Below are positions 1-18,214 of a stretch of 64,000 bases of DNA, piece by piece. Each line of letters begins with the position of its first letter. The first letter of the stretch is position 1. The position numbers were made by a program, and so were the translations under genes. The notes beneath the pieces were generated by a model. It was not told the origin of the DNA and did not search any database. It saw only the letters and a list, made by a program, of their open reading frames with translations. The stretch is from assembly GCA_963827275.1 (NCBI GenBank), contig CAWHAA010000007.1, positions 224,001 to 288,000 on the forward strand, read 5' to 3'. The DNA comes from an uncultured Spirochaetota bacterium (lineage in GTDB: Bacteria > Spirochaetota > UBA4802 > UBA5550).

Positions 1-105
1 TATTGTTGCTTCACGGCTTCCCGGGCCTTGACGCTCCATGCTGGAAAAATATTCGCAAATTAATGCAATATCAAAATCGTGAATAGTATGCTCTTCGCCG
101 CTCAT
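1..105 (-). CDS. class I SAM-dependent methyltransferase, N-terminal fragment (runs off window)
   Basis: Read manually and not in the ORF track. The ATG at 105 has a GGAGGT RBS and encodes MSGEEHTIHDFDIALICEYFSSMERQGPGSREATI. The 'ICEYFS..ERQGPGS' start is typical of a common SAM-methyltransferase family. Confidence 0.7.
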   Translation of the reverse strand, partial: MSGEEHTIHDFDIALICEYFSSMERQGPGSREATI

Positions 106-572
106 TTTGTTTACCTCCAGGAACTCCATGATAGTATGGTGTATTATTATATACAATATATTTTTACGGTGACATGGATGTCGCCTCTTGAGCGGCGGGT
201 ACTGGTAATTCACCCCGGAGGACTTGTGGCAGTCCCGGCACTGCCAGCCCGGCAGGCCGCTGCAATTATGCGTCGTGGTGTCCCATGTATAATGCAATCC
301 ATTAATACATATGAAAAAGCATCTTCGTAGGTTGCAGCCTATGCAACTGAAATCGTTTTATCCAAACCAGCCAGCTTTCAAATAAGGCACTTTATAAAAA
401 AAGCCCTGGACAGGGGCCTTGTCGTTGGCAGGGGCGCTCGCGTCGGGGGCCAGTGGGCGTGAGAAAAATGATTATATACAATGCAAAATACTGGACAGGA
501 AAGGCGATTATGGACTAAAAGATTTGCATCCTTTCGTAAAGAAGCCGTAGTGCTGCAAGGGGATATCGCGCC

Positions 573-1571
573 ATGGGCCTGTTCAAAAGCCTGTTCGGGA
601 AAAAGATCATCATCGTCATACATGGCCTTGAAAACAAACCGCCGCAGGGCCTGCTTGAAACATGGTGCAAAAAATCGGTCCGCGAGGGGCTCCGGAACAT
701 AGGCCGGCCGGGCCTGCCCTTTACCCTGAAGCTCGTATACTGGGCGGACCTGATGCATGAAATGCCGCAGGACCCCTCGGTCAGGGATAAAAAGAGCGCT
801 GCCTTTCTCGATGATCCGTACCTGCCGGGGGACCCCGCCGCGTACGGGTCATTTGCGCCGAGCACAATCAAGAAGAACCTCCTGGACAAGCTTGAAAAGA
901 AGCTCGATGCCATGTACTTCGACGAAAAGAGCTTCATTAATTTCGACAAGTTCGCGAACATCCTGGTCCGGAGGCTCTTCCGGGACCTGGACTGCTATTA
1001 TCACCGGGACTGTCCCGTAACACGGTTCCGCGGGATGCTCGCGCGGGACGCCATCCGCATGCGCCTTGCGGAGGTCCTGCGCCGCTTCGGGGACAAGGAG
1101 ATACTGCTCGTGGCCCATTCGATGGGGACGATCATATCATACGACGTGCTCATGCAGACGACGCCTGACGTGACGATCAACACCCTGGTAACCATCGGAT
1201 CGCCGCTGGGGATGCCGCTGATACTCAAGAAGATATTGCTGGAGCAGGGGAGGGACTACCGGAAGGAGCGGAAACCGGTCACGCCGGAAAACATTCTCCA
1301 TGCCTGGCATAATTTTTCCGATCTTGACGATCCGGTGGCCATCAATTACAACCTGGCGGATGATTACCAGGCCAGCTCGCGCGGCATCGCGCCGCGTGAC
1401 GCGATCGTGTACAATAATTACGTCATTGACGGGAAGCGGGACCCCCACAAGCTCTACGGCTACCTGCGCGCGCCGGAGGTTTCGCGGGCGATATACGATT
1501 TCTGCATGGCGGGCAGGTCCCCGGCGGTGAACAGGCTCTTGCAGGGGATCGGGAAGATCTTCCGCTTCTAA
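573..1571 (+). CDS. alpha/beta hydrolase (lipase/esterase-like)
   Basis: IHG oxyanion motif, AHSMG nucleophile elbow, 'TIGSPLG', and candidate Asp (DDPV) and His (DPH). Its stop codon overlaps the convergent gene at 1568-1571. Confidence 0.8.
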   Translation: MGLFKSLFGKKIIIVIHGLENKPPQGLLETWCKKSVREGLRNIGRPGLPFTLKLVYWADLMHEMPQDPSVRDKKSAAFLDDPYLPGDPAAYGSFAPSTIKKNLLDKLEKKLDAMYFDEKSFINFDKFANILVRRLFRDLDCYYHRDCPVTRFRGMLARDAIRMRLAEVLRRFGDKEILLVAHSMGTIISYDVLMQTTPDVTINTLVTIGSPLGMPLILKKILLEQGRDYRKERKPVTPENILHAWHNFSDLDDPVAINYNLADDYQASSRGIAPRDAIVYNNYVIDGKRDPHKLYGYLRAPEVSRAIYDFCMAGRSPAVNRLLQGIGKIFRF

Positions 1572-2749
1572 CGTATGCCGGTTGTGAGGCTGTTCAGCAC
1601 CGCCTCCAGCCGCCCCTTCGTGGCGAGGGCGTTCGGCAGTGAAAGGATGAGCTCCACTGAATCATCATTCCCCGTAATCAGCAGAAAAAACGGCACGTAG
1701 TCGCTGAGGGGCGGAATGCAGTAGAATGCCGTTGCCTCGAACCCCCCGCCCCGGATGAGCTTGAGGGGGATCCTGCCGACGTTCGACAGCGCGCCTGAAA
1801 TGCTGTATATGCCCCGCTTTTTCCTCGCGTTGATGACCTTCCGGGCGGCGATGTCAAGCATCCATATCGGGACGTAGCGTATCAGGTCATCGCCTTTCGT
1901 GAGCAGGCCGTCTCGCTTCTCCTCCAGCTGCCGGGCTATATCGGCGGACACCTGCTCGGGCGTGGTGTCTTTTTTTACTTCGATGTAGATAGCGAATGTC
2001 AGGTTTGCCGTGGAGAGCAGGCCGGGCTGGTGGTGGCGCATATCGGCCGGGATCGCGAACCGCACGACGCCGTCGGAATATTTCCATGCTTCACGCGCGA
2101 CGATTACGGCGATCTGGCCGAGCAGGTCGTGCGGACGGCCCTTTAGTGTGACCCGCCGCCAGATGAAGCCTGGCTCGTTCCCGTCCGCGAGGCCCGTGGG
2201 CGGTATGTGCTCCGTCGGATAGGGGGTCCGGAACCCGGACTCGAAGCTTTTCGCCAGCTCCATGTCGGTAATGGCCGAGCGGGAACCGAGACACGGCTCT
2301 CCGCGGAGGGCGCGCATGATATCGAAGATCCAGGTAAAGGAGCCGCCGCCGTCCATGACTGCGTGGTGGGTCCTGAAGATCACGCGCGGGGTTGTCGCGT
2401 CCGGGAGCAGCAACACCTCGCAGGTGGGGCCTTTTTTCAGGTCAAGCGGCTTCTTTAAAAATGGCGCATTCTCCCATCCGTTCCCCGACCAGCCGGAGTT
2501 TTTGATCTCGATAACGGGCGGCGTCACGCTGGAATCAACCCAGCGGCAGGAGCCGAGGACGCCGCGCAGGACGACGCGGCTTCCCGGGTTGGCCTCGGAG
2601 GCCGCTGCAACCGCGGCCCTCCACAGGTCAACGTCCAGCACGCCTTTTCCCTCGAAGATTCCCTGGTTCATCATGGGAGGTGAGAGCCTGTTCGCCACGA
2701 CGAACATGCGCTCGTTGAAAGATAATTTCCTTGTGTACTTCGCGTCCAT
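1568..2749 (-). CDS. stand-alone condensation-domain / CoA-dependent acyltransferase (paralog 3)
   Basis: 393 aa with the motifs 'RKLSFNER', FRTHHAVMDGGG (HHxxxDG), 'PADMR', 'STANL' and 'LSNVG'. These indicate the CAT/C-domain/PapA5 fold. Confidence 0.85.
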   Translation of the reverse strand: MDAKYTRKLSFNERMFVVANRLSPPMMNQGIFEGKGVLDVDLWRAAVAAASEANPGSRVVLRGVLGSCRWVDSSVTPPVIEIKNSGWSGNGWENAPFLKKPLDLKKGPTCEVLLLPDATTPRVIFRTHHAVMDGGGSFTWIFDIMRALRGEPCLGSRSAITDMELAKSFESGFRTPYPTEHIPPTGLADGNEPGFIWRRVTLKGRPHDLLGQIAVIVAREAWKYSDGVVRFAIPADMRHHQPGLLSTANLTFAIYIEVKKDTTPEQVSADIARQLEEKRDGLLTKGDDLIRYVPIWMLDIAARKVINARKKRGIYSISGALSNVGRIPLKLIRGGGFEATAFYCIPPLSDYVPFFLLITGNDDSVELILSLPNALATKGRLEAVLNSLTTGIR

Positions 2750-2818
2750 GAATTAACCCTCCATCATGATATCCATATCTGTGTTTGTTTGTTATGGATG
2801 GCGGAACCCGCGGTATCG

Positions 2819-4009
2819 TCAGGCAGAATCAAGGCCGGCGATTATATTGTTAATGGCCGTTTCCAGCCTTCCTTCTGTCGACAGGTTGCGCGGCATGTTG
2901 ATGAGGAGCTCGCTCCTGTCACCCGCGCCCGAGAGGGTCATCATGAAAGGTATCATGGGCGCGATAAGGGGGACGGCGAAGAACGTCTCGGCCCTGAATC
3001 CATCGCACGAGAATTTTTCAACCTCCACCCGCCCGAGGTTCGATATGAATCCGGAAAAGCGGTACCGGCCGGATTTCGCGTTGCGGGCCCCTTCCATCTC
3101 GATGCCTTTTTGAAAAAGCCGGATGGGAACATGCTTCGCGAGGGTGTCTTCCCAGGTGACCTCTCCGTCATAGAGGTTCGTGACCCGGCTGTTGATTTCA
3201 GCCGCAAGCGCGTCAACGCCGGTCCCGGGGTCGATGTCGATATAGATGGCATTGGCGAGGTTGCTGGTTGAGCGGAGGCCCTCCCGCCGGTACCTGAGGT
3301 CAACCGGTATGCCTATGCGGACGTTCCCGTCGCCGTGACGGCGCGCTTCGCGCGCCGTCAGCAGCATCACCCGCGCGAGCAGCCGGGGCTGTCTGCCCAT
3401 GATTGTCCTCCGTTTCCACGCAGGGCTCGTGTCGTTCCCGACGGCCTTTCCCGCGAGGGGGAGGTAGGTGTGCGGGAGGGGATTTTTTCTTTTTCCCCAC
3501 TGCACGTTGAGGAGATCGATCTCGGTCATGAGGAATTCCGCGCCGAGCGGCTTCTCGCCCCTGAGGACGCGGAAGATGTCCTCTGCCCAGGTCATGGTGC
3601 CGCGCCCGTCCATTATCGCGTGATGGCTCCTGAACGCGACGCGCGCCGGGTGCCCCTGTATCAGCACGACTTCGCAGTTGGGCCCTTTTCTGACCGGGAA
3701 GCTGCTCTGGAGAAAGGGGGCGCCGTCGGACCCCGTCCCGTCCCACGCGCTCCCGTCCGCTTCCCGCACGGTCGGGGTTATTCCCGAGTCAATCCATCTT
3801 TCCCTGCCCGGCAGGCCCCTGAGGACGATCCTGCTGCCGGGGTTCGCTTCAGAAGCGGTCCGTGCCGCCTCCTTCCAGTTCTTGAGGTCGAACCGTCCGG
3901 TCCCCTCGTAGATCATCTGGTTCACGCAGGGAGGAGAAGCGCGGTCCGCCGCGAGATAGAGGCGCATCGAAGCCGAGAGCGGCCTGTATTTCTGATCCGG
4001 TCTTTTCAT
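2819..4009 (-). CDS. stand-alone condensation-domain / CoA-dependent acyltransferase (paralog 2)
   Basis: 396 aa with FRSHHAIMDGRG, 'PVDLR', 'STSNL' and 'ISNLG'. Aligns end to end with its neighbours. The start overlaps the upstream stop (4006-4009). Confidence 0.85.
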   Translation of the reverse strand: MKRPDQKYRPLSASMRLYLAADRASPPCVNQMIYEGTGRFDLKNWKEAARTASEANPGSRIVLRGLPGRERWIDSGITPTVREADGSAWDGTGSDGAPFLQSSFPVRKGPNCEVVLIQGHPARVAFRSHHAIMDGRGTMTWAEDIFRVLRGEKPLGAEFLMTEIDLLNVQWGKRKNPLPHTYLPLAGKAVGNDTSPAWKRRTIMGRQPRLLARVMLLTAREARRHGDGNVRIGIPVDLRYRREGLRSTSNLANAIYIDIDPGTGVDALAAEINSRVTNLYDGEVTWEDTLAKHVPIRLFQKGIEMEGARNAKSGRYRFSGFISNLGRVEVEKFSCDGFRAETFFAVPLIAPMIPFMMTLSGAGDRSELLINMPRNLSTEGRLETAINNIIAGLDSA

Positions 4010-5208
4010 TTGGGTGGCGCGGGCTTCATCCCTTCTTTAATTTTATTTACCATGGCATCAAGGCGACCGTTGTTTGCCAGGACCTTGGGAACGCTGATTA
4101 TCATTACAAACTTGTTTAACTCGGTATTCCTTGCCATCCCGCAGAAGAAGGGGATAACATCAACGCAGGGCGGGATTCCCAGCCCGTTATTGGGCATGAA
4201 ACCGCCGCCGGCGAAGATTTTGTGGGGGATCTCCTGCATGTTTGATATGACGCCGGAATTCCGATACAGCCCTGTCTTTTTTTTCGTCTCTATTTCATTC
4301 AGTAATCCCTTGCGAATCACCGACATCGGCATGTAGCGCACCATCTGGTCTGCCCAGTATAGTTCGCCGTCCCGTTTTTCCTCAAGCTGCTTCTTGACGA
4401 TCTGCGTGACGTCTTCAGGGGTCGTGTTTTTTTCGATTTCAACATACATGAAATTTGTCAGGTTTCCGAGCGACAACTCGGCGGGCTTCCGCGGCCGCAT
4501 GTCCACCGGGATGGCGATGCGCACCGGTCCATCGGCATGGCTCCAGGCCTCACGCGCCATGATGACCGCGAGCTGTCCTACCGCGTTGGGAAACTTGGGA
4601 ATATCAAAGGTGAATCTCCGCCAGGTGTAGCCGCGCTCGTCCCCGGAGGGTTTGCCGGTTGGAGAGAGATACTTGTGAGGGGGCGGGACCCTTCCGTTTT
4701 GCTGGAAACTTTTCGCGATCTCGTATTCCGTGATTTTTGAGTTGAAGCCTATCGGGGCCTCGCCCCGTAATCCCTGGGTGATGGCGAATAGAAAGTTGAT
4801 CGTTCCCCTGCCGTCCATTACCGCGTGCATGGTGCGGATGGCCACCCTGAGGGGATTGCCGTGAATGAGGACTAATTCACAGGTGGGCCCTTCATACGGG
4901 TCAAGGGGGTCAAGCAGGAAGGGGGCGCCTTCGGGGCTCAGGCCGTCCCATTTTGATCCGTCAACTTCACGTACGCGCGGGGTTTTTCCCGAATCCACCC
5001 ACCGGGTGAAATTCAGCTTTCCTTTTAGTACCAGTCTGCTGCCCGGATTTGCGGCTGAAGCGACCTCTACGGCTTTTTGCCACAATTTAAGATCAAGTAC
5101 TCCCGTGCCTTCCATTATTATCTGGTTCGCAAACGGCGGACATTCTTCGGCGTTAATGATATAAGTACGCTCTGTCGGAGTGAGTTCCCTGGTGAATTTT
5201 TCTGTCAT
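4006..5208 (-). CDS. stand-alone condensation-domain / CoA-dependent acyltransferase (paralog 1)
   Basis: 400 aa with IRTMHAVMDGRG (MHxxxDG variant), 'PVDMR' and 'ISNM'. RBS GGGAG. Confidence 0.85.
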   Translation of the reverse strand: MTEKFTRELTPTERTYIINAEECPPFANQIIMEGTGVLDLKLWQKAVEVASAANPGSRLVLKGKLNFTRWVDSGKTPRVREVDGSKWDGLSPEGAPFLLDPLDPYEGPTCELVLIHGNPLRVAIRTMHAVMDGRGTINFLFAITQGLRGEAPIGFNSKITEYEIAKSFQQNGRVPPPHKYLSPTGKPSGDERGYTWRRFTFDIPKFPNAVGQLAVIMAREAWSHADGPVRIAIPVDMRPRKPAELSLGNLTNFMYVEIEKNTTPEDVTQIVKKQLEEKRDGELYWADQMVRYMPMSVIRKGLLNEIETKKKTGLYRNSGVISNMQEIPHKIFAGGGFMPNNGLGIPPCVDVIPFFCGMARNTELNKFVMIISVPKVLANNGRLDAMVNKIKEGMKPAPPK

Positions 5209-5362
5209 GCTATTGTCTCCCTGGCTTTAGGTAGTAGTGCGCTATAAGCGGTTCATCCGGTGACGTGTTCCAACGATAATCGATCGCGGCACGTGCGGTG
5301 CCGCGGAGGGCATGCGCCATCCCCTGATACAGAGGGGAGGGGCCTGCGTCCGGCCCTGCGGG

Positions 5363-6415
5363 CTATTGTGCGGTGTTCCTCCTGTCGGTCATGCGGCGGT
5401 CCGAAGACCTCCTCTCGGTCTTGTTGTCCCACGTGCCGCCGGTCCGCCGGTCGGCGGTCCTTCTGTCCGATATCCGCCTGTCGCCGAACCTGCCGTCGAT
5501 AAGGCGCACCCTGGTCAGCTTCGGGTTGGCCAGGAGGCGCTTCTTTCTCCTGAACAGGCCAAGCCGCTCGTTGAAAAAGGCCTTCCTGCCGAAGGAGATG
5601 AGCGCCAGGAGCAGGAAAAGCCTGTTGGCCCCCATCATTGTTGTCATGTACATGTATGCCCACGCGTCGCCGCGCTCCTTGTGGTCAAATTCGGGCGGCA
5701 TGAGCTTCTTCACTCCCTCCTGGATCTGGAACTTCTTTTTCGTCCAGTCCAGGTGCTGCGATCCGGGAAAGAGGTTTTTTACGCAGAAGGGGTAGTCCGG
5801 ATTGACAAGGGACATGCTGTATTTTTCCAGGTACGCGTGATGGATGCTGACCAGTTCCTTCGAGGGATGGTACGAGTTGTCGTATTTCTTCTTGTTCCAG
5901 TAGGAGTTGCGATAGTAGCTGTTCATCACCTGCGGGTTCGCAGAGATGGAGACATAGATGAATTTCCTGATCGATTTTCCCAGGTCAAGCTTCTTCATGA
6001 AATAGAGGAAGGCCGTGGTCACGATATGGAGGGCGAGATCGGAGCCCTGGCACTCCTTGAGTACCATGGTCTCATCATTGGTGAAGAAGCAGTAATCGTT
6101 AATGAGCAGGAGGGAAACCAGGCAGAAGGCAACCACCCGTCCGTCCTTCTCCGTGTAGATGAGGAGGGTGCTTTTTTTCAGGTATTCGTAGAAATTTTCC
6201 TGTGCCGTCCAGGTGCTTTTTTCAACCTGCTCACACGCGCTGATGATGCCCTCGAGCCTGCTGAAGTCGGCGCTGCTCAGGTCGATGCCGTAATAATTGA
6301 ACCCTTTGTTCTGGACTAAAAAATAATCACGGCTGGTGATAGGCTCCTGTTCGGGTTGCAGCACCTCCGGTTCAATCGTTTGAACTGCGGCGTCATGCAC
6401 TAATTGTATTTTCAT
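5363..6415 (-). CDS. GNAT-fold N-acyltransferase-like protein with C-terminal DRR repeats
   Basis: The 'DGRVVAF' strand and 'TMVLKECQGSDLA' resemble GNAT motif A (V.P..QG.GLA). The tail reads DRRISDRRTADRR...ERRSSDRRMTDRR. The ATG at 6415 has a GAGGGGG RBS. Confidence 0.55.
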   Translation of the reverse strand: MKIQLVHDAAVQTIEPEVLQPEQEPITSRDYFLVQNKGFNYYGIDLSSADFSRLEGIISACEQVEKSTWTAQENFYEYLKKSTLLIYTEKDGRVVAFCLVSLLLINDYCFFTNDETMVLKECQGSDLALHIVTTAFLYFMKKLDLGKSIRKFIYVSISANPQVMNSYYRNSYWNKKKYDNSYHPSKELVSIHHAYLEKYSMSLVNPDYPFCVKNLFPGSQHLDWTKKKFQIQEGVKKLMPPEFDHKERGDAWAYMYMTTMMGANRLFLLLALISFGRKAFFNERLGLFRRKKRLLANPKLTRVRLIDGRFGDRRISDRRTADRRTGGTWDNKTERRSSDRRMTDRRNTAQ

Positions 6416-6454
6416 CAATCCCCCCTCATGTGCCTTGGTCGCGGTACCGTTCAG

Positions 6455-7543
6455 CTACGCGTGCTTCCCGCGGACGGTTCTTTTCCTGAAAAGAAGAATG
6501 GCCTTCGAGAAAACCCTGTAATGCGCGTACAGGTAATCCGCACGGGGATATCTCCCCGGCTCATTGCTGTTCCGCCATGTCCTGAATGACAATGCCCTGT
6601 AGATACGGCTCGTGCCGGTGATCGCGCCGGTAAAATAGAATGGAAGGGTGTCCGGCTCGCGCTGCGGTATGTCGTACATGACGATGCCCGGGACCATGTC
6701 CTTGAATTTCCTGTAACCGCTTTTGTTGTCACGGTATTTTTTGAAAAGAGAATCAAGCTGGCCAAGCGTTTTAGCGCTGCTGCCCTCGCTCGCGTAAAAC
6801 CTCGATTCGTCGATCTTGATGCCGTATGCCCCTTTATAGATGAGAACATTGAGAAAATCATTGAACTTCATCACTGCCAGGGCCCCGAGAGAAAATCCGC
6901 TTTCCCACCAGGCGCCCGCCATCCGGACGGCATTGTCAAGAAATAACGCGAAAGATCCCTCGCGCTGCCGGTCATGCTCCCTCTGGTGCATCACCATTCT
7001 TGCATGGATCGAAGCGTTGTTGGTGCCGATGGCGCCGCCCTCATAATTGATGTTTTTCTTAATAAAGCTGAAAAGGGCGAAATCGCCATAGGTGCCGAGC
7101 TGCTTCCCCTTGTAGAAGGAAAACGGGGCGTGCGCCAGGTCCTCGATGACCAGCAGGTTGTGCCTCCTGGCGATTGCGCAGATCGTGTCAATCTGCGCCG
7201 CCACGCCGTAGGTATGCACCACGTAGATTGCCTTGGTGCGGGGTGTTATCGCCCTGCGTATCTTTTCCGGGTCGATATTGATCCCCTCGTCCTCCGCGTC
7301 AACAGGGACCGGTGTGATCCCGCTTTCTTCAACGGTATGCCTGATGATTGAGCAGGTGAAAGCGGGCACGATCATTTCCGATGACCTGTCCCAGCGCATT
7401 GCTTTTATGAGCAGGAAGAGACCGTTCCTCGCATATCCCGTGATGACAAAGTGCTTTAACGGGACCAGCTCTGAAAGCTTTTCCTGCAGGGCGCGTTCCG
7501 CGGACATGCCGTTGACGCTGCTTTCAATCTTAAAGCTTATCAT
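6455..7543 (-). CDS. DegT/DnrJ/EryC1/StrS-family PLP-dependent aminotransferase-like protein
   Basis: Motifs 'IVPAFTC', 'ITPRTKAIYVVHTYG', 'IEDLAH' and 'GTYGDFALFSF.KK...EGGAI'. The start was reassigned to the ATG at 7543, just after the capA-like stop. Confidence 0.8.
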   Translation of the reverse strand: MISFKIESSVNGMSAERALQEKLSELVPLKHFVITGYARNGLFLLIKAMRWDRSSEMIVPAFTCSIIRHTVEESGITPVPVDAEDEGINIDPEKIRRAITPRTKAIYVVHTYGVAAQIDTICAIARRHNLLVIEDLAHAPFSFYKGKQLGTYGDFALFSFIKKNINYEGGAIGTNNASIHARMVMHQREHDRQREGSFALFLDNAVRMAGAWWESGFSLGALAVMKFNDFLNVLIYKGAYGIKIDESRFYASEGSSAKTLGQLDSLFKKYRDNKSGYRKFKDMVPGIVMYDIPQREPDTLPFYFTGAITGTSRIYRALSFRTWRNSNEPGRYPRADYLYAHYRVFSKAILLFRKRTVRGKHA

Positions 7544-7548
7544 GCCCG

Positions 7549-8595
7549 CTACTGCATCACCGGCTGATACGAGCTGTTGATCTGGACGTATTTTCTGTTC
7601 ACCTGGTATATCTTTTTGTTCTGCAGCAGCACTTCGAGCATCATTCCCCGTTTGGCCGCGGTGACGCTTGTATTTGATACAAGGTTGCCGAGGGAATAGG
7701 CGAGGAAGCCCTTCGCGTACACCATGACCGGCTGGATGACGCCGGGGTGGTGGCCTATGACAAGGTGCGCTCCCTGGTCGATGCACTGGTGCGCGAACCG
7801 GTCCTGCTCCGAATTGGGAAGGGTCTCCTTGTCGGCGCCGAAGTGCATGGAAACGATGACTATGTCGGCCGTCTTTTTTGCCGCGATGATGGCCGGATTG
7901 ACGTACTTGGTGTAAAACCAGGCGACGCCGGTCTGTGGCACCATGCCGTTGTCTGCTGATTGCGCGCGGATAATTGTCTCCTCACCGACCAGTGTAAACG
8001 CGAGGAATGCCACTCTTGTTCCTTTGACGTCGAAGATTTTAGCCGTGTATGCTTCCGTGAAGGACCCGCCGCCAATTGGAGCTATCCCCGCCGCTTTCAA
8101 CATCGCAAGGCATCTGTCGAATGCGGGACGGCCGCCGGCAAATGTGTGGTCATTGGCGACTGAGACGGCATCGATACCTGCGTAAGACAGGCCCGCTATA
8201 GGGGCGGCAGCAGTCATAACGCAGGCAAGGTCGGCAAAGACGAAGTCGGCGCCATTCAGATATTCCGCGACGTACTGGTATGCCGTCTGCGTGCTGGTTC
8301 CTATCGCGATGTCGCCTGTAAATACCAATCGCAACGTCTCGGTAACCGGAGGAATGACTGGAGGATCGACCGGGGGATTGACCGGGGGATCGACCGGAGG
8401 ATCGACCGGAGGATTGACCGGAGGATTGACCGGGGGATCGACGACCGGATCAGTGCTGCTGTCAGTGGCAGGACCGGACAACAGGCCGGCGAACATCCCT
8501 GAATTATCTTTTTTTTCTGAGCTATCGCACCCGGTGCTTGTAATCAATAATGCCGCTATAAAGGCAAAAACTGCTGCGAACAATTGTTTTTTCAT
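7549..8595 (-). CDS. CapA/PgsA-family (PGA_cap) metallophosphatase-like lipoprotein with Pro-rich linker
   Basis: Lipobox TSTGC. Motifs TGDI, VSVANDH, VSMHFG, VIGHHPGV and YSLGN. PPVD/PPVN repeats. Confidence 0.8.
   Translation of the reverse strand: MKKQLFAAVFAFIAALLITSTGCDSSEKKDNSGMFAGLLSGPATDSSTDPVVDPPVNPPVNPPVDPPVDPPVNPPVDPPVIPPVTETLRLVFTGDIAIGTSTQTAYQYVAEYLNGADFVFADLACVMTAAAPIAGLSYAGIDAVSVANDHTFAGGRPAFDRCLAMLKAAGIAPIGGGSFTEAYTAKIFDVKGTRVAFLAFTLVGEETIIRAQSADNGMVPQTGVAWFYTKYVNPAIIAAKKTADIVIVSMHFGADKETLPNSEQDRFAHQCIDQGAHLVIGHHPGVIQPVMVYAKGFLAYSLGNLVSNTSVTAAKRGMMLEVLLQNKKIYQVNRKYVQINSSYQPVMQ
8344..8452 (-). repeat. 12-bp tandem repeats encoding (PPVD/PPVN)n linker
   Basis: About 8-9 units of gga(t/g)..accgg(a/g)gg encoding DPVVDPPVNPPVNPPVDPPVDPPVNPPVDPPVIPPV. 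Confidence 0.9.
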
Positions 8596-9650
8596 CAGAC
8601 TTCTCCTCGTAGAAAACTTGCTTTGTATTTACTTGATACGCGTCTCGTGATTATGCTGTAATACCAGGCCCCGATGAGCCCGCGAACGATGATTATCGAC
8701 GCGGAGTAGACGAGGCTGAACGCGAGTATCTGCGCCGGTGAACCGTAGTCCTTGAAGAGCAGCAGCATCGCCGCCTGCGAGGTACCGAGCCCGAACGCCG
8801 ATATCGGAATGCTGATGACCAGCAGGATGACCGGTACATACGCGATCAGGGCCGTAAACGGTATCTCGATGTTAAAGGCCCGTATCGCAACGTAGAAGAA
8901 AAGAATGAAGGTGGCGTAAAATACGCACCGGTATCCAATATTGATGATATACGTGGGAAACGATGTTTCAATATAAATCTTGAACAGGTCGTTCTGCTTG
9001 ATTTTCCTGATATACCTGAAATCGGGAAGGTATTTGATGAGCAGGACGGACAGGACACAGAACGCAAACAGGCCGGCGCAGATGACCGCGATTTTTTCAA
9101 GCCAGGCGGAGGACGTGTCAGCGGCCAGGAACGTCCCCCCGATGGCCATGAGCGTCAGGGAAACCTGCGTGGTGTAGTTCAAAAGAAACATCAGTCCCAT
9201 GCCGCGGAGGAGCGGGATGCTCTTCAGCTTGTTCAGATAATACGCGATGCTTCCCATGCCGAGCGTATAGTCGATGATCATGAGCAGGTATGATGCGCCG
9301 CGTATTAGCCTGGCGTCCTTGAACGAGATCTCATGATGGGAGCTCTTCAGTATCGCGTACAGGTTCTGCGTGTCGGTAATAAAATTCAGCACGATGAAGA
9401 CGGCCAGGGCCGCGCAGTAGAGCGCGACATCGGCGCGGGAGAGCGCGTCCAGCAGCGAGGTGTACTCGATACGCCAGATCAGGTACGCGAGTATCGCACC
9501 CCCCACCAGCCACGGAAGGGCCCGCTTGATGCCGCTGAACCTGGTGCGGGCAAGCTGCAGGGCGCCGGAAAAGCGCTTTTCAGGGCCGCCGCCGGTCACG
9601 GGCGCGGTAACGGCCGCTTCGTCGGTGTCGAATTTTAATGCCGGGATCAT
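8595..9650 (-). CDS. lysylphosphatidylglycerol-synthase TM / flippase-like membrane protein (UPF0104/YbhN-type)
   Basis: About 8-9 hydrophobic helices and the motif 'IPISAFGLGTSQAAM' (Pxx.gGxG). TGATG coupling to the capA-like gene. Confidence 0.8.
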   Translation of the reverse strand: MIPALKFDTDEAAVTAPVTGGGPEKRFSGALQLARTRFSGIKRALPWLVGGAILAYLIWRIEYTSLLDALSRADVALYCAALAVFIVLNFITDTQNLYAILKSSHHEISFKDARLIRGASYLLMIIDYTLGMGSIAYYLNKLKSIPLLRGMGLMFLLNYTTQVSLTLMAIGGTFLAADTSSAWLEKIAVICAGLFAFCVLSVLLIKYLPDFRYIRKIKQNDLFKIYIETSFPTYIINIGYRCVFYATFILFFYVAIRAFNIEIPFTALIAYVPVILLVISIPISAFGLGTSQAAMLLLFKDYGSPAQILAFSLVYSASIIIVRGLIGAWYYSIITRRVSSKYKASFLRGEV

Positions 9651-9667
9651 GCGCTGCTGACTCCCGC

Positions 9668-11206
9668 TTATATCCCGAACAGGTCAAGGAGACTGCCCAG
9701 CAGGCTGTCGCCCGATGAACCGGAGACATCCGCCAGCGGAATAACGCTGTCATCGTCGAACCCGCCGCGCGTGTAGCCGATCCAGAGGGGATCCCACGGC
9801 TTGCTGTAGCTCCATGCATAGGCTTCGTTGTCGGCTTCGATATAGTTGCGGTAGGCGTATTGCACGCTGTAATTGGAAAAATTTCGCAGGGTGTCCGGCG
9901 TCAGGTATGACGGGTGCGCGGTCATGTCGTACAGGAGCTCCTCGCACCTTCTGAAAACGTACTCCTCGATGGGGATGGCCCATGCCTGGATTTTCGCGAG
10001 CTCATTCTTGTTCATGGAACGGTCGTCCATGCCGGTGAGGACGTCCCCGGTGTTCGTTTCGTACAGGAGGCCCTCGAATGTTTCGCGCGCGTTCGATGCC
10101 CGCGCGAGAAGGCTCGTGTCGTTAAGGTCATGCCAGTTGCCGTCAAGGTCGAGGCCGTCGGCCCAGGCGAGCGGGCTCACTTCCCCCGCATGGACGAAAT
10201 AGGGGAGGAAGAGGGCGACCGAGGGCTCGCCCAGCGCGCACCAGAAAACGCTCAGGCGCGGATCGCTGCCGGGGACCACCCCGTCCACCAGCATGGAGAG
10301 CCGCGTCGCCGCCCTGCTGATGCAGTAGGTGGTGCTGTAATCGTCCTGGCAGTCGTCCTGGTCGAGCACGTTGCCGGTCCCGTCGACCTGCTGCCCGTAC
10401 ACGTCCTTGTTGATTTCAAGCATGCTGTTGCGGTAATTCAGCCGGTTCGTATTGGCCAGGTCGGTCAGCAGGTACTCCATGCGCTCGCGCCGCTCTTCCC
10501 CGTAATTGAACGGGATATAGGCGTTGGCGTTGGCGCGGGCGAAGAACCCGATGAAATCGTCCCCTTCGCCTTCGTCCACGACGGTGGTGTAGCTCATTAA
10601 GAGGCCACCGTGGAATTCGGTTATCCTGCCGTCGTTTGCGTCGTATTTCCTGAAATCCATCGGCCAGGCGCCGGAGATGACCCATCCGGTAAAGCATTCA
10701 TACAGCGCCGCGCCGCCCTTGGCGTCAATGACGACGAAGTTCCCGCTGATTACTTTCCCTCTGTGGGTATTGTGGAAATTCTTGAGGAGTGATTCCCAGT
10801 CCGCGATCGTGGCGCACTCCTGCAGGGCGTGCCTGATCAGGTCGGTATTGATATTGATCAATTCATGGAGCGGGTTAAAGTCCTCGTACACGGACGTGCA
10901 GGATACCGCGAACCCTGCCGCATTGACCCCGCCGGAGGGGTTCTCCGGGTCGCCATTGTTCAATTCCGCGGCGTCGTCAAAAGCGCTGACCATGATGTAG
11001 TCGCCCGCCTTCGCCGTTACCGCCGGGTAATGCTTGATCTCCTGGTGCCAGTTCGCTGAACAGTCCCTGTTCTTCCAGAGAAAGGGCCTGCCGGTCGTGG
11101 ACGCCTTCGCGGATACCACGACCACGTCACACGGATATACGTGCGTGTAGGTTAAGCCCGCGATGAGCGTCATAATTGCGATCAGATACACTCTTGCCTT
11201 TGTCAT
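9668..11206 (-). CDS. secreted Cys-type Ntn hydrolase/acyltransferase (peptidase C45 / isopenicillin-N acyltransferase-like)
   Basis: A signal peptide is followed directly by CDVVVVSAKASTTGRPFLWKNRD (N-terminal nucleophile Cys). Also 'GGVNAAGFA', 'ALQECATI' and 'NFVVIDAKG'. Confidence 0.75.
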   Translation of the reverse strand: MTKARVYLIAIMTLIAGLTYTHVYPCDVVVVSAKASTTGRPFLWKNRDCSANWHQEIKHYPAVTAKAGDYIMVSAFDDAAELNNGDPENPSGGVNAAGFAVSCTSVYEDFNPLHELININTDLIRHALQECATIADWESLLKNFHNTHRGKVISGNFVVIDAKGGAALYECFTGWVISGAWPMDFRKYDANDGRITEFHGGLLMSYTTVVDEGEGDDFIGFFARANANAYIPFNYGEERRERMEYLLTDLANTNRLNYRNSMLEINKDVYGQQVDGTGNVLDQDDCQDDYSTTYCISRAATRLSMLVDGVVPGSDPRLSVFWCALGEPSVALFLPYFVHAGEVSPLAWADGLDLDGNWHDLNDTSLLARASNARETFEGLLYETNTGDVLTGMDDRSMNKNELAKIQAWAIPIEEYVFRRCEELLYDMTAHPSYLTPDTLRNFSNYSVQYAYRNYIEADNEAYAWSYSKPWDPLWIGYTRGGFDDDSVIPLADVSGSSGDSLLGSLLDLFGI

Positions 11207-11261
11207 TATGCTTCTCTCCTCTGTTTAAGATGTGACAGTATTGCAATAGGAAACCGTTGCT

Positions 11262-12581
11262 TCAGACGGCTGATGTCAGGAGCGGTTCCTCGTCTTTGTT
11301 TCTCACCCTTGATTCTATCGCCTTGCGCTTGATGCTTTTTTTCATGTCGATATGATCGACGAATTCGACGGTAATGGTCACCGGTTCGGCGAATATTTCG
11401 TTGAGGCTGTCGATCAGCTCCCGGAACTGGCGCTCGTTGTATTCCTTGCCCCGCACGAGCTCGATGACGACGACACCCTTTTCTTTCTGGATGATCTTGA
11501 ACTCCTCCATGAGGTGCAGGTATTTTTTTATGTACTTTGTAAAGGTGTTCAGTATTTTCAGGGAAGACACGTATTTTCCGCTCGGAAGGATGAATGAATC
11601 ATCCGCCCTGCCTTCGAATGATTCCAGGAGGGGATACCCGAGGCCGCAGGCGCAATCACTATCGCTGTAGCGCCCTATGTCGCCGATCTTGTAGCGGATA
11701 AAGGGCATCGCGTCGCTCCGCGTCGTGGTCAGCACGATCTCGCCGTCTTCTCCCGGCTTGACCGGGTTGCCGTTCCTGTCAAGAAATTCCACCCATACGT
11801 TGTCAATGAACAGGTGGTAATGGCCTTCACTGCATTGCGACGCCACCATCCAGGTCTCTTCCGTGGAATACTCATCGTATACCGGGCAGCCGAATACCTT
11901 CGCGATGAACTCCCGCTGGTGCTTCGTTGAAAGCTCCGAGTTGATGCCGATGAATTTCGGCCGGATCAGCTTCAGGTCCTCCGGGGTCACCTTCTGGGCG
12001 ATCTCAAACACGAGCGACGCATAGCCGAGCAGGAGGTCGGCGCCCGCGTTTCTCAGCATGGCGATCTGCTCTTCAACCGGAATGGTCGAGGGGATGTGCT
12101 CCGTGCGGAGGAAGGGGCCTATATGCGGATAATTGATCTTCGTATATTTGATATATACCATTTTGTGCCATGGCCGGTAGCCGATCATGGTGTACATGCG
12201 TATGCCGGTCGCGACGTAAAACGCGAACGTTGACTTCGTGAATACGAATGGCAGCGACCGCCCCGTTGAACCGGTGGTGGCAGAATAATGGCAGTCCGCC
12301 ACATCATGCTTCCTGGAAACGATGCCGTCAGGGAACTGCTCGCGGACATCATCTTTCGTGATAAAGGGGAGCTTTCGCAGATCGTCGAGTGTTTTTATAT
12401 CATCGATATCGACGCCCCAGTCATCATAGAGTTTTTTATAAAAGGGGACGTTCGTATAGGCGCGTCGTATGCCGCGGACCAGCCTCCGCTCTGTCATCTT
12501 CATCAATCTTTTACGTGACAGGAGATTGTTGCAGTGGACCTTAATGGTTGAAATTATAATCAGTACAAGGAATCTCAACAT
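11262..12581 (-). CDS. phenylacetate-CoA ligase / CapK-like adenylate-forming enzyme
   Basis: Motifs 'NVPFYKKL', 'LPFITKDD', 'TTGSTG' (P-loop), 'DEYSTEE', 'MPFIRYKIGD' and 'EGRADD'. Confidence 0.9.
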   Translation of the reverse strand: MLRFLVLIIISTIKVHCNNLLSRKRLMKMTERRLVRGIRRAYTNVPFYKKLYDDWGVDIDDIKTLDDLRKLPFITKDDVREQFPDGIVSRKHDVADCHYSATTGSTGRSLPFVFTKSTFAFYVATGIRMYTMIGYRPWHKMVYIKYTKINYPHIGPFLRTEHIPSTIPVEEQIAMLRNAGADLLLGYASLVFEIAQKVTPEDLKLIRPKFIGINSELSTKHQREFIAKVFGCPVYDEYSTEETWMVASQCSEGHYHLFIDNVWVEFLDRNGNPVKPGEDGEIVLTTTRSDAMPFIRYKIGDIGRYSDSDCACGLGYPLLESFEGRADDSFILPSGKYVSSLKILNTFTKYIKKYLHLMEEFKIIQKEKGVVVIELVRGKEYNERQFRELIDSLNEIFAEPVTITVEFVDHIDMKKSIKRKAIESRVRNKDEEPLLTSAV

Positions 12582-13164
12582 TTTGTTATTCTCTGTCCTT
12601 TGATGAGATAAAAATCATATTTGCGCAAACCGTCTGGGCGGTATTTATTTTAATCATTTGTTTTAAAGAAGAAATTTTTCTCATATTGAGATTACATTCA
12701 AAATCTGTTATTAAAAACTTCTTCAGTGAGGGTAGAATGATATTCTCTATTTTCTACAATCCCTGTCAATATGTTTACCTGATACTTCTAGTATAATTGT
12801 TTAATATTTAAAAAGGCTTTGTTTGTATATTTTAAACTATTATATACTATATACAGAATTATCAGTTAGCAGTCTGGCAATTGTCTGATGTATCACAAAT
12901 AGGCTTATATTTAGATAGATCTATTATTTTGATCTGCCCGATAGTTATCGGTAGTTATCAAAGGCGATCTCTGTAGATTGTATACAATAGTTGACTTATT
13001 TAAGTAATAATACAAATATTAGTGAGCTGATCTCTCAATTATCAATACTATGCCCTCAATATCCTGAAATCCTGCGGTCATATGCATTTCTAATGCCACA
13101 TTAGTATGCATTCAGAACTACCGGTACCTGGCAACAGGAAAGCGAAACGCCGTCAGGGGTTACA

Positions 13165-13371
13165 TTATTTCCCGCTGATTTTGCTCCATACCCGCGGAAG
13201 GTACGCGCCGATAACTATCAGCAGGAGACCCAGGAGCGTCCATTTTGTAAAAAGCACATCGGCCTGGAAGCGGGTAAGGCCAACATTAAGGATGCTGATG
13301 TACCAGCCGACGACCATCAGGCCGATCCCGATTACATTCGGAATGATTGCGCTTCCTATTTTGTCTAACAT
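13165..13371 (-). CDS. small two-helix membrane protein
   Basis: 68 aa (MLDKIGSAIIPNVIGIGLMVVGWY...) with two TM segments and a GGAGAGGAG RBS. Confidence 0.65.
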   Translation of the reverse strand: MLDKIGSAIIPNVIGIGLMVVGWYISILNVGLTRFQADVLFTKWTLLGLLLIVIGAYLPRVWSKISGK

Positions 13372-13559
13372 ACGCATCTCCTCTCCAGCATTGATTGTTC
13401 CCCGGCCGTGCCGCATGGGAAAAATTATCCTGATTGTCGAATCCGGTTGACGTATAGTGCATGCGGATAATATTATCAAGAAGAATTTGCGTGCGGCGCA
13501 TAAATTGCGGAATGTATGACGGTGATGCGCCGGAACCTGAAGATGGTGCGGAGAGACCA

Positions 13560-14921
13560 ATGAAAAAAATGGCAGTGCCGTTGATGATTATTGCGATGCT
13601 GTTTCCTGCCGGCTGCGACAGGCGGAGCGGACGCATTGACCTCCTGGTGGGTGATGATTCCCTGAAGCAGTTCTATTCAATTGATGCATCTTCTGTCGCC
13701 ATGTACGCCTCGCCCGCGGACAGGAAATCCGGAAAGGCAGAATGCAGGGTATATGAGGAAGAATATGACGTGTTCATAAAAATGTTCCGCGTCCTGAGCG
13801 ACCGCGAGGTGCGCGAGGCCTACCTGGCCAAGGGGAATGCGCGTTTCCCTGCTGACTTTGCCGGGAAGGTGCGGGCAATGGACGACCGGTCCTTCCGGTT
13901 CGGCGCGGGCGGGATGAAGCCGCTCGAGGGCCTCCGTGTCGCGATTGACCCGGGGCACAGCGCCGGCTCCATGGAGGAGGCGATACGGGAAGGCAAGTTC
14001 ATGTCCCTGCGGGGCCCGGACGGCCGCCTGATCAGGTTCCATGAATCCGCGCTGAATCTCGCCACCGCAAAGGCGCTCAGGGAGATGCTTGAGAATGACG
14101 GGGCGACGGTGATGCTTACCAGGGAGGACAACCGGCAGGCGTTTCCGGTGCCTTTTGACCGGTGGAAGCAGGGTAACTTCCGCCAGGCGGTCATGGAGAA
14201 GATGGGTGAGCGCCTGATATCAAAGGAGGAGGCTGACCGCCTCCTGAAGGGTGCCGGCGGGGAGCGGGCGCGCCTCAAGTTCTTCAACAGCGAGTACGAG
14301 ATGCCCTGGCGGGCCCGGCTCATCAACGCGTTCCGCCCGCACATCACCGTGCTGGCGCATTTTAACGCGTACGATGACGATACCGGGTACCGGAGCAAGT
14401 ACCTCAGGATCAAGAGCATCATGCTGGGCAACCAGGGCCGGTGCGATGAAAAGATGAAAGATATCGAAGAGGTCGTTGCCTCTATCGCCGAGGTCAAGAA
14501 AAACTTCTGCTCCGCGTACGTGCCGGGCTGCTTTCTCCGCGGTGAGCTGGACGCCGTAGAGTCGCGGATCGAGTTCCTCCGCCTGGTCATTTCGCCGGAC
14601 CTGGAAAATTCGGCGATCTATTCGAAATACGTGGTCGATAATTTTCGGGATTACCTCAAGGTGCCCGCGGCGCGGGAAGCATATCACGGAGCGTACCGCG
14701 CAGGCATATGCAAAAAGGGCGTGTACGCGCGGAACTTCAGGATGACGCGGCTGGTGCGCGGCGTCCTCTGCCTGGGCGAGCCGGTTCTGCAGAACAACAT
14801 GGAAGAGGCCCTCCGCCTCAAGGAGATCGCGGAGGGCAGGGTGCCTGAGCGGGTGGTGGCGGCGGCGCGGGCCTACCGCGACGCGGTCCATGCCTACGCG
14901 GAGCGATATATGGCGGAGTGA
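13560..14921 (+). CDS. N-acetylmuramoyl-L-alanine amidase (Amidase_3) lipoprotein
   Basis: Lipobox FPAGC. Zn-amidase motifs VAIDPGH, E..LNL..A, VMLTR, LAHFNA and 'LCLGE', with large insertions. Confidence 0.8.
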   Translation: MKKMAVPLMIIAMLFPAGCDRRSGRIDLLVGDDSLKQFYSIDASSVAMYASPADRKSGKAECRVYEEEYDVFIKMFRVLSDREVREAYLAKGNARFPADFAGKVRAMDDRSFRFGAGGMKPLEGLRVAIDPGHSAGSMEEAIREGKFMSLRGPDGRLIRFHESALNLATAKALREMLENDGATVMLTREDNRQAFPVPFDRWKQGNFRQAVMEKMGERLISKEEADRLLKGAGGERARLKFFNSEYEMPWRARLINAFRPHITVLAHFNAYDDDTGYRSKYLRIKSIMLGNQGRCDEKMKDIEEVVASIAEVKKNFCSAYVPGCFLRGELDAVESRIEFLRLVISPDLENSAIYSKYVVDNFRDYLKVPAAREAYHGAYRAGICKKGVYARNFRMTRLVRGVLCLGEPVLQNNMEEALRLKEIAEGRVPERVVAAARAYRDAVHAYAERYMAE

Positions 14922-14937
14922 CGCCCGCCGGCGCTCA

Positions 14938-15636
14938 TTATCTTTTCTTTTTTGCCGTGGTTCCCGGCTTTTTCAGTTTTTTCCCGGGGATTTTCTTCAC
15001 CGGCGCCGCCTGCGCCGCAAGCTCGAAGTCCCTCTCTTCAGCTATCTTCCGCGGGGTTTTACCGTCATTGTTCACCAGGTTCGTCTTTGCGCCGGCCCTG
15101 GCGAGGACCTGCGAGGCCCTCCATTTCCCCTTGAGGAGGGCCTTGTGCAGCGGCGTGTTCCCCGTATTGTCCCGCGCGTCGATCTTCGCTCCCTGCTTTA
15201 TCAGGAAGCCGACGATCTGCTCATGCCCTTCCTCCGCCGCCTCGTGGAGCGGGGTCTCTCCATGGTAATCGGCCTGGTGTATGTTCGCCCTGCTGCGGAC
15301 AAGGAGCTGGACCAGCGGCAGGTTGCCTGATTCGACCGCCTCAAGGAGGGCGGTTTCTCCTTCCCGGTCCAGCGCGTTTGGGTTCGCTCCCTGGCGGAGC
15401 GCTTTTTTCGCCGCCTGCAGGTCGCCCCGGTCGCAGGCATCCAGGAGGTCGCGATCGGGATTAAGCTCTATGACCTGCGCGGTCGCCGCGTGTATCTTGA
15501 CAGAATCGATGCCGTTGATGCAGCTCTGTTTCGTGGAGTATCCCTCGCTTGAGGCGAGGATTTCGCCGTTAGGGGCCTTGAGGCGGAAGCGGAAGCCCCC
15601 CTTCTTGTCTTTATATACTTCAAAAAATGCCGGCAT
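14938..15636 (-). CDS. YegP/DUF1508 domain fused to ankyrin repeats with Lys-rich tail
   Basis: 'FEVYKDKKGGFRFRLKAPNGEILASSEGY' is DUF1508. GETALLEA, GETPLHEA, GNTPLHKA and GKTP are ankyrin motifs. Confidence 0.85.
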   Translation of the reverse strand: MPAFFEVYKDKKGGFRFRLKAPNGEILASSEGYSTKQSCINGIDSVKIHAATAQVIELNPDRDLLDACDRGDLQAAKKALRQGANPNALDREGETALLEAVESGNLPLVQLLVRSRANIHQADYHGETPLHEAAEEGHEQIVGFLIKQGAKIDARDNTGNTPLHKALLKGKWRASQVLARAGAKTNLVNNDGKTPRKIAEERDFELAAQAAPVKKIPGKKLKKPGTTAKKKR

Positions 15637-16014
15637 ATCACCCTCCTGTGAATAAAAAAAGAATGCAGTATGTAGTAACGTGCCCCGGTCGGCGGTCCTT
15701 GTTGCGGGACCGTTTAAATTGATATATAACCGGCTCGGGAATTAATCAAGCATAAATCATGCATGGCCCGGGCCTGCGTCCCCCCTGCGGGGGCCAGGGG
15801 GGCGGACAGAACGGGAGAGGGCTTCCCTTTCGAAAAACCGGGGGAAGTAAAAAAATTTTACCATGACGCTATTTGTCATGGCTGGCATGATAGTATACTA
15901 TTGCATTTTCAGGTACGGTGAATAAAAAAAGCCGTTTTACCGCTGCAGGTCCGGAAAAACTGATTGAATTTAATTTAACCGTATATACGTTTATAGCCAA
16001 ATGGAGGATCATGG

Positions 16015-17409: not shown

Positions 17410-17440
17410 CGGTCCGCACATGCCGGGAGGAGGTGGCCCG

Positions 17441-18214
17441 ATGAAAATCATCTTCCACGAAAAATTCTACGACTCGGATTACGCCGGGGACCCCGCCGCC
17501 GCGCCCGGACGGATGGAAGGCATCATGGAGGTCCTCTCCTCGAAGAAGGACCGGTATGAGATAATCCGCCCGGAGCCGGCTTCCGACGAGGACATCCTGC
17601 GCGCGCACAGCGCCGCGCACCTCCAGCGCATAAAGGGCAACCGGCGCCTGTACGAGCTGGCGTCGCTCTCCGCCGGCGGCGCCATACTCGCGGCGGAGCG
17701 GGCGTACGCGGGGGCCCCCTCGTTCGCGGTGATACGCCCTCCCGGCCACCACGCCTCGGCCGATTCCTGCTGGGGGTTCTGCTTTTTCAATAATATCAGC
17801 ATCAGTCTGCTCAGGTTGCGCGCCGAGGGCAGGATCGGGTCGGCCTTTGTCCTGGACTTCGACCTGCACACCGGCGACGGGAACATCAATATTCTGGAGG
17901 ACCGGAGGGACGGCTTCAGGGTGTCGATACTGAACCCGATGGCGCGCGAGCGGCGCGGGTATATCGCCGAGGTGGAGGAATTCATGCAGGGGCTCCATGA
18001 TATTGATATTGTCGTTGCCGCGGCCGGCTTCGACCAGGGCATCGACGACTGGGGCAACCTCCTGTACCCGGACGATTATGCCGAACTCGGCCGCCTGATG
18101 AAGGACCACGCCGGGCGGCTGTGCGGCGGACGCCGGTATGCCCTGCTGGAGGGCGGCTATAATCATGAGGTCATCGGCAGGAACGTGGACGCGTTCTGCG
18201 GCGGCCTTGAATGA
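17441..18214 (+). CDS. histone deacetylase / acetoin-utilization deacetylase family protein
   Basis: Motifs RPPGHHA, GFCFFNN, DFDLHTGDG, AGFD and LEGGY. The ATG at 17441 follows a GGAGG RBS. Confidence 0.92.
   Translation: MKIIFHEKFYDSDYAGDPAAAPGRMEGIMEVLSSKKDRYEIIRPEPASDEDILRAHSAAHLQRIKGNRRLYELASLSAGGAILAAERAYAGAPSFAVIRPPGHHASADSCWGFCFFNNISISLLRLRAEGRIGSAFVLDFDLHTGDGNINILEDRRDGFRVSILNPMARERRGYIAEVEEFMQGLHDIDIVVAAAGFDQGIDDWGNLLYPDDYAELGRLMKDHAGRLCGGRRYALLEGGYNHEVIGRNVDAFCGGLE

Follow-up and report, generated by a model that had tools for sequence, protein, structure and literature searches.

A conserved cassette encoding a PaaK-like ligase, a PF03706 membrane protein and three free-standing condensation-fold proteins in an uncultured spirochaete, and its candidate role in making an acylated membrane lipid

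Several described systems share parts with the gene cassette studied here, which lies within a 64,000-nucleotide (nt) stretch of DNA (the window; contig CAWHAA010000007.1 of assembly GCA_963827275.1, positions 224,001 to 288,000) from an uncultured Spirochaetota bacterium. It encodes, in order, a PaaK/CapK-like ligase, a secreted N-terminal nucleophile (Ntn) enzyme, a flippase-like PF03706 protein, a CapA-like lipoprotein, a DegT-type enzyme, a GNAT protein, and three free-standing condensation-fold (C) proteins, namely, C1, C2 and C3. The poly-gamma-glutamate capsule locus, capBCADE, likewise combines a ligase and a membrane protein with an Ntn enzyme and a lipoprotein of the CapA family. The lipstatin nonribosomal peptide synthetase (NRPS), LstE, has the domain order condensation-adenylation-thiolation (C-A-T), and leucine is linked in lipstatin as an ester to a hydroxyl. 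According to the accessible parts of two reports, the NRPS and a formyltransferase of that cluster attach N-formyl-leucine to a dialkyl lipid (bioRxiv 10.1101/856955; PMC12141560). The fatty-acid-amide NRPS-like pathways of gut Clostridia (OaaA, OaaACP and OaaC) resemble the cassette, as far as the available text goes, in using a free-standing condensation domain and a separate adenylating enzyme, and they make a lipid amide with a small-molecule acceptor; particular to them are a single C domain, often with the motif DHxxxDS, and a dedicated acyl carrier protein (ACP) (PMC13310621). In MprF and stand-alone PplT/UPF0104 cassettes such as gpgSDF, one operon places a PF03706 translocator gene after cytoplasmic genes for lipid modification, a gene order that the window shares, and in the accessible portions of these sources PF03706 domains are described as likely lipid translocators (bioRxiv 2022.03.11.483950; PMC12713373). 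Finally, AzeD and other stand-alone C-type dehydratases are, in the accessible part of their report, free-standing, carrier-free proteins with a condensation fold (bioRxiv 10.64898/2026.07.17.738954).

The cassette differs from each of these systems. Unlike Oaa, cassettes of the window type have no ACP; their C proteins, between two and four in number, come from distinct lineages and have HHxxxDG (DHxxxDS occurred in 0 of 108 C-family members), and they are encoded with a GNAT, a flippase, a secreted Ntn enzyme and a ligase of the PaaK type. Unlike MprF and gpgSDF, the window has neither a tRNA-dependent DUF2156 synthase (no Pfam match among the window ORFs scanned) nor a glycosyltransferase (none among the 13 open reading frames [ORFs] scanned, as had been stated from the sequence alone); what it encodes is an adenylating ligase and a CoA-type GNAT, along with C-fold enzymes and an Ntn enzyme that is extracellular. 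AzeD is only 14% identical, has a PHxxxDG motif and, in the accessible text, acts beside an NRPS (bioRxiv 10.64898/2026.07.17.738954). Compared with capBCADE, the window has no CapB or CapC match among the same 13 ORFs, its ligase is of the ANL/PaaK type, its Ntn enzyme is C45-like, and its CapA is optional and degenerate. The C family of the window corresponds to the N-terminal domain of the single-module NRPS in clusters with lipstatin gene order; in the window, however, the C proteins stand alone, in three lineages and with no A-T didomain, and the cassette has no OleA/C/D-like beta-lactone genes, KAS-III pair, beta-lactone synthetase, reductase, C-A-T NRPS or formyltransferase. The cassette resembles a fatty-acid-amide pathway joined to an MprF-like flip step, yet belongs to neither, nor to the lipstatin-type or capsule loci; it matches neither a capsule nor a lipopolysaccharide locus, in line with the novelty that the sequence-only reading had proposed. 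No description of this gene combination was found in the openly available papers searched.

The cassette is real, conserved and uncharacterised. In a related-genome set of 61 genomes (its own plus 60 relatives, which as kin are not independent), the same 14 genomes held strong matches to the C family along with the ligase, GNAT and Ntn enzyme, and three further genomes had no more than weak partial C matches. All four were missing from 5 of the 16 same-genus genomes (88-96% complete). One genome, G056, has the ligase, Ntn, CapA and DegT genes with no C or GNAT match; its copy adjoins a Wzx/heparinase-type polysaccharide locus. The cassette is gained or lost as a unit. A scan anchored on the C proteins recovered 29 loci, most with the same partner genes in shuffled order, labelled as Spirochaetota, Smithella, Syntrophaceae, Desulfomonilia, Deltaproteobacteria, Syntrophomonadaceae, Solirubrobacterales and Moritella; the closest titled relatives were Spirochaetota metagenome-assembled genomes (MAGs), and the uncultured bacteria bearing the cassette are labelled as four to five phyla. 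The predicted co-localisation of the C trio, ligase, Ntn enzyme and flippase holds in related and distant genomes alike.

A metagenome scan anchored on the ligase yielded 53 loci, 22 of which had 7 kb on both sides; 19 were left after three near-duplicates were dropped. Flippase genes were found in 17 of these 19 loci, C genes in 15, GNAT in 14, Ntn in 13, efflux genes in 12, DegT in 8, CapA in 4 and GH3 in 2. The pair kept most often is thus the ligase and flippase; GNAT and Ntn follow, and DegT and CapA are optional. The view of the C trio as an invariant core did not survive this comparison, as the ligase and flippase are more constant (17/19) and four loci have no C genes nearby. Three of these four carry a second or third PaaK-like ligase, and two also carry GH3. 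The GH3 variants have a different GNAT-like gene, 45-50% identical to one in the Moritella loci, where one C protein and an RND pump stand with GH3 and two GNAT-like genes and there is no flippase or Ntn enzyme. Overall, these acylation cassettes seem to form a modular family.

The variant loci have further features. GH3-ligase variants are L097-L099 and L046-L049; the latter come from Moritella, a cultured host that may offer the simplest access to a related product. L098 and L099 have GH3 and two PaaK ligases together with Ntn, flippase, RND and a GNAT-like gene of another family. L095:1004-16180 encodes a 2,513-aa protein with ketosynthase (KS) and four FabA domains; it stands ahead of Ntn, flippase and DegT genes and of three PaaK-like ligase genes, and the vicinity holds no C gene. 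Smithella-type copies (L022/L023:1666-7093 and L090:15419-20846) adjoin a divergently oriented cluster with ACP and FabZ-like genes and two genes each for radical-SAM enzymes and ketosynthases, a possible source of an unusual acyl chain. A 315-aa secreted protein (L023:15848-16795; L084:6624-7565) comes after the flippase in seven metagenome loci and in L023; it has no Pfam match, and by its motifs APHG, HGH and LHxE it resembles a zinc amidohydrolase.

The three C proteins of the window share 39-46% pairwise identity. The second His and the Asp of the motif are kept in 108/108 aligned family members and the exact HHxxxDG in 81; the description of all three as HHxxxDG acyltransferases thus stands for C2 and C3, and C1 reads MHAVMDG (MHxxxDG). 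Their best score against PF00668 (Condensation) was 11.9 bits, short of the cut-off of 30.6, and no PF00668 match was found anywhere in the genome. Among the three, the structure of C3 was modelled, from a 110-sequence alignment (pLDDT 95.6). Foldseek returned 261 PDB matches to this model at E<=0.001, with NRPS condensation domains leading, i.e., a two-lobed fold like that of chloramphenicol acetyltransferase (CAT); the best match was AzeD (TM 0.72, 14% identity). A profile of the 110 sequences gave no sequence match to PDB chains. As judged from the model, the window C proteins share the NRPS condensation fold.

To place the three copies, we used a 96-row quick tree and a 29-row careful tree, the rows of the latter picked from the 108 family members. 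C1, C2 and C3 fell into three lineages, each spanning phyla (support 100/99, 92/99 and, for lineage II, 76/92), and their grouping in a single clade was rejected (approximately unbiased [AU] test, p 4e-11). Because the window copies belong to three different cross-phylum lineages, they do not stem from a recent triplication. Moreover, six of the eight three-copy loci in the 29-row tree have one copy per lineage (in the other two, lineages I and III are joined by a third copy that was not placed), which argues for three non-redundant reactions. The genome also encodes an orphan fourth C protein (L050:9186-10364, minus strand) that is 62% identical to C3, has the motif LHGVMDG and adjoins another GNAT-domain gene. 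In the ESM Atlas, unnamed clusters of 258 (Actinomycetota commonest) and 291 (Pseudomonadota commonest) proteins of ~400 aa score 0.99 to C3, and free-standing relatives may therefore be much more widespread than in the present sample.

Longer homologs of the C family numbered 47, all annotated with an adenylation domain, and the family domain was N-terminal in 46; all 12 that were rescanned were C-A-T. A plasmid search matched 24 records, and the 20 plasmid rows listed show 27-32% identity to C3. Two of four inspected plasmid loci contain, in this order, KAS-III, a hypothetical protein, an acyl-CoA ligase, an NAD-dependent reductase, an NRPS and a formyltransferase, as does the lipstatin cluster; the other two sit in type I polyketide synthase (PKS) clusters. 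Because the family domain thus occurs in C-A-T synthetases of lipstatin-like clusters, the C family, by analogy, likely transfers acyl or aminoacyl groups onto lipid hydroxyls; dehydration in the manner of AzeD is a conceivable alternative.

No carrier domain was found in window positions 1-20000. A home-made carrier profile, which detected 4/4 NRPS loci used as a positive control, was run over 97 loci and found none in 91 of them; in four Smithella-type loci, an ACP lies in the adjacent divergent fatty-acid cluster, and two loci gave weak matches inside large proteins. The cassette is therefore without a dedicated carrier. However, the genome has 12 PP-binding matches elsewhere, one of them 16 kb away in an A-T-acyltransferase protein; window 26852-29332 (plus strand) encodes AMP-binding, carrier and acyltransferase domains in one 826-aa protein. 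Since acyl-ACP could be borrowed in trans from these 12 carrier domains, the 'carrier-independent' pathway of the sequence-only reading is borne out in that no carrier lies in the cassette, but is not established as such.

Among the nine cassette genes, only those for DegT, CapA (PGA_cap) and PF03706 were above a Pfam cut-off, and the ligase, Ntn enzyme, GNAT and three C-like proteins were below every curated Pfam/NCBIfam cut-off. Nevertheless, the assignments made from sequence (C fold, GNAT fold, PF03706, PF01041 and PF09587) were all supported, that of the Ntn enzyme as probably C45-like. The ligase scored 99 bits with the NCBIfam PaaK model (equivalog cut-off, 646), and the nearest solved ligase in a profile search was the PaaK structure 4r1l (E 1e-38), from which it differs in the stretch following the P-loop. 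No paa genes were among the annotated neighbours of the loci, and the ligase likely activates an acid other than phenylacetate. Its motifs ATTGSTG, YxKYT, NSEL, YSTEETWM and KRKAIES are invariant in the loci aligned, and the 62-78% identity kept across 16 other loci suggests one specific substrate.

The GNAT model (pLDDT 80.4) matched, among the Foldseek hits listed, single-domain GNAT acetyltransferases; distant family members match PF00583 weakly, and in them the canonical acyl-CoA motif is present, as V/N-HPD-x-RG-x-G. Six D/E-RR repeats occupy the low-confidence tail of the model (residues 313-347; window 5363-5480), presumably resembling RxxxR c-di-GMP-binding motifs. The tail is present in many spirochaete copies and missing from a second cassette-family GNAT elsewhere in the genome (L051:8845-9783, plus strand; 75% identity). 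The DegT enzyme scored 141 bits with PF01041, and its D135 and K162, presumably the Asp and Lys that bind pyridoxal 5'-phosphate (PLP), are invariant in 9/9 copies. Its fusion to the GNAT in L041 supports the idea that DegT would feed the GNAT. The proposed aminated scaffold thus keeps its DegT family assignment, as an optional step (8/19 loci).

Cys26 of the Ntn enzyme, which directly follows a signal-like segment, is invariant in 11/11 copies. The match to NF040521 (E 2e-8; 33.8 bits) is below the cut-off of 85; in the Atlas, the enzyme scored 0.96 to clusters in which 18-36% of members carry PF03417, and two of its relatives reached the PF03417 cut-off. Copies in L040, L058, L024 and L041 have Ig-like or low-complexity surface tails. 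The flippase-like protein matched PF03706 at 56.2 bits (cut-off, 33.4) and CapA matched PF09587 at 161 bits. The CapA of the window reads DLAC/ANDH/GHHPG, and 5/11 aligned copies keep NLE/ANNH/GHHPH; the window copy has thus lost metal-motif residues, and it is accessory. Its linker (window 8345-8445) consists of tandem PPV(D/N) repeats, with TG or DTGTG repeats in relatives.

As predicted, all nine ORFs are intact and co-oriented on the minus strand in the order listed, from 12581 to 1568 (Table 1). The gaps from ligase to C3 are 55, 17, -1, 5, 39, 154, -4 and 69 nt. Against the coupling of several genes claimed before, there are two overlaps (flippase/CapA, 1 nt; C1/C2, 4 nt) and one 5-nt gap; the other gaps are 17-154 nt. 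A lipase-like hydrolase does converge on the end of the cassette, overlapping C3 by 4 nt; it lies beside the cassette only in close spirochaete relatives, and in L034 the equivalent position is taken by a carboxylesterase (11254-13128) that runs toward the final C gene. The cassette is preceded upstream by a short ORF (window 13165-13392, minus strand) for a membrane protein with two helices, conserved in close relatives (~50% identity). Farther away, window 42531-59758 (minus strand) holds four large ORFs for Ig-like or NHL-repeat surface proteins, three of which mutually overlap by ~150 nt and are possibly one giant frameshifted gene.

Table 1. Features of the cassette and its flanks (window coordinates).
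Feature	Position	Strand	Basis or remark
Sigma-70-like promoter match	12742..12769	-	TTGACA-16-GAGAAT, 10/12 consensus bases, upstream of first gene; consensus match only
PaaK/CapK-like adenylate-forming ligase, 439 aa	11262..12581	-	Sub-cut-off NCBIfam PaaK-type matches; profile match to structure 4r1l
Secreted Cys-nucleophile Ntn hydrolase/transacylase, C45/AAT-like, 512 aa	9668..11206	-	Signal-like N-terminus, then C26-D27
Stand-alone PF03706 (MprF-flippase/PplT/UPF0104) membrane protein, 351 aa	8595..9650	-	Pfam above cut-off
CapA/PGA_cap metallophosphoesterase-fold lipoprotein, Pro-rich repeat linker, degenerate metal motifs, accessory	7549..8595	-	PF09587
DegT-type PLP enzyme, 362 aa, divergent C-terminal half, accessory	6455..7543	-	PF01041
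GNAT-fold acyltransferase, family without a name, 350 aa, D/E-RR repeat tail	5363..6415	-	Structure model
C1, free-standing condensation-fold protein, lineage II, MHAVMDG	4006..5208	-	Motif, alignment, trees
C2, free-standing condensation-fold protein, lineage I, HHAIMDG	2819..4009	-	Motif, alignment, trees
C3, free-standing condensation-fold protein, lineage III, HHAVMDG	1568..2749	-	Model, Foldseek, trees
Convergent alpha/beta hydrolase, lipase-like, membership uncertain	573..1571	+	PF07819 at cut-off; AHSMG motif

We propose, with about an even chance of being right, that the cassette makes a multiply acylated amide or ester membrane lipid inside the cell, flips it, and then has it processed outside. 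Every substrate, the order of steps and the product are here proposed from the genes, folds, motifs, co-occurrence and three paralog lineages described above. The PaaK-like enzyme would activate a polar carboxylic acid as an adenylate, for conversion to a CoA thioester or direct use; the GNAT would N-acylate an amine head group, supplied by the DegT enzyme where present; and each of the three C-fold enzymes would have its own target hydroxyl or amine and add to it one further acyl or aminoacyl group, drawing acyl-CoA or acyl-ACP from the general pool of the cell. Assembly would take place at the inner face of the cell membrane, the PF03706 protein would move the lipid to the outer leaflet, and the secreted Cys-Ntn enzyme would cleave or exchange an amide-linked acyl group outside, with CapA and the lipase as accessory factors. 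A lipid is favoured because no partner gene is as constant as the flippase, whose PF03706 domain is of a kind described as translocating lipids in the accessible parts of the sources given above, and because lipid-synthesis genes adjoin some copies (ACP, ketosynthase [KAS] and radical-SAM genes in Smithella; KS-FabA in L095). A more specific form of this proposal is tentative, and we hold it as possible rather than probable: a new class of bacterial membrane lipid with no carrier of its own, assembled by a GNAT, a ligase of the PaaK type and three C enzymes of ancient specialisation related to the lipstatin-type NRPS domain, with MprF-type flipping and Ntn transacylation outside, and with variants in which GH3 or additional PaaK ligases replace the C trio.

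Several findings weigh against the lipid proposal. The C genes are not nearby in 4/19 ligase loci, nor in G056, and triple acylation is for this reason not the core function. The best structural match of C3, AzeD, is a free-standing dehydratase, so that a C fold need not mean acyl transfer; the link to LstE rests on gene order and not on the sequence of LstE; and lineage II has a bootstrap of only 76%, the lineages having been named after the first tree had been viewed. Nearly all loci are MAG or metagenome contigs, whose phylum labels may include mis-binning. Direct flippase activity of stand-alone PF03706 proteins is not shown in the accessible portions of bioRxiv 2022.03.11.483950 and PMC12713373. 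In addition, efflux pumps beside 12/19 loci would fit a released metabolite equally well.

Such a metabolite, i.e., a small acylated amide or lipopeptide-like molecule whose acyl tail serves as an export handle removed outside by the Ntn enzyme, is an alternative that we consider unlikely but worth keeping in view. PvdQ removes the acyl tail of pyoverdine outside the cell in this manner. The genes beside those 12 loci are of RND, HlyD, outer-membrane efflux, MMPL or MacAB type, the C family also serves natural-product NRPS/PKS clusters, and Moritella pairs one C protein with GH3, GNAT-like genes and RND in loci with no flippase or Ntn. Yet the cassettes of the window and its close relatives contain no exporter, and the flippase (17/19) is more constant than any exporter. 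Somewhat less probable still is a relay of the kind known from the Dlt and Pat systems, in which the flipped lipid is a donor and the Ntn transacylase moves its activated acyl group onto a surface polymer or protein. This would suit the C45/AAT family, which by its family names includes acyltransferases, the surface tails on the Ntn enzymes of L040, L058, L024 and L041, and the polysaccharide locus beside the G056 copy; however, the annotated neighbour clusters that occur most often include no recurrent polysaccharide or glycosyltransferase family, and a simple donor hardly explains three extra acyltransferases.

Two further alternatives appear improbable. The cassette could be catabolic, with an aryl-CoA ligase and hydrolases degrading an ester or amide and the C-fold proteins acting as AzeD-like dehydratases. 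AzeD is indeed the best fold match, PaaK is the nearest solved ligase, and the hosts are labelled as fatty-acid-degrading anaerobes; we nonetheless regard it as very unlikely, given that the ligase scores 99 rather than 646 bits for PaaK and differs after the P-loop, that paa or beta-oxidation genes do not recur, that AzeD is 14% identical with PHxxxDG as opposed to HHxxxDG in 81/108 family members, and that the GNAT, DegT and flippase fit synthesis. We give just as little credence to a poly-gamma-glutamate-like polyamide capsule built by the ligase, the membrane protein, CapA and a CapD-like Ntn anchor enzyme. The PGA_cap match and the amide-processing secreted proteins of some loci (C39-like, M28, APHG/HGH-motif) point that way, but CapA is found in 4/19 loci and is degenerate in the window, CapB (a Mur-type ligase) and CapC have no match among the 13 window ORFs scanned, and the Ntn enzyme resembles C45 and not gamma-glutamyltranspeptidase.

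What is new here is the three-lineage C trio, its link to lipstatin-type C-A-T synthetases, the C-less GH3 and multi-ligase variants, and the caveat on carriers. At 11 kb the cassette is compact and expressible unaltered. If the membrane-lipid proposal is true, the cassette would yield, in uncultured anaerobes (spirochaetes, Smithella and Syntrophomonas), a lipid or surface metabolite so far undescribed, and would provide a partner pathway that helps to assign a function to stand-alone PF03706 proteins. It would likewise reveal a condensation-domain family missed by Pfam and NCBIfam, both free-standing and within actinomycete NRPSs, and would constitute a natural test of C domains working without a dedicated carrier.

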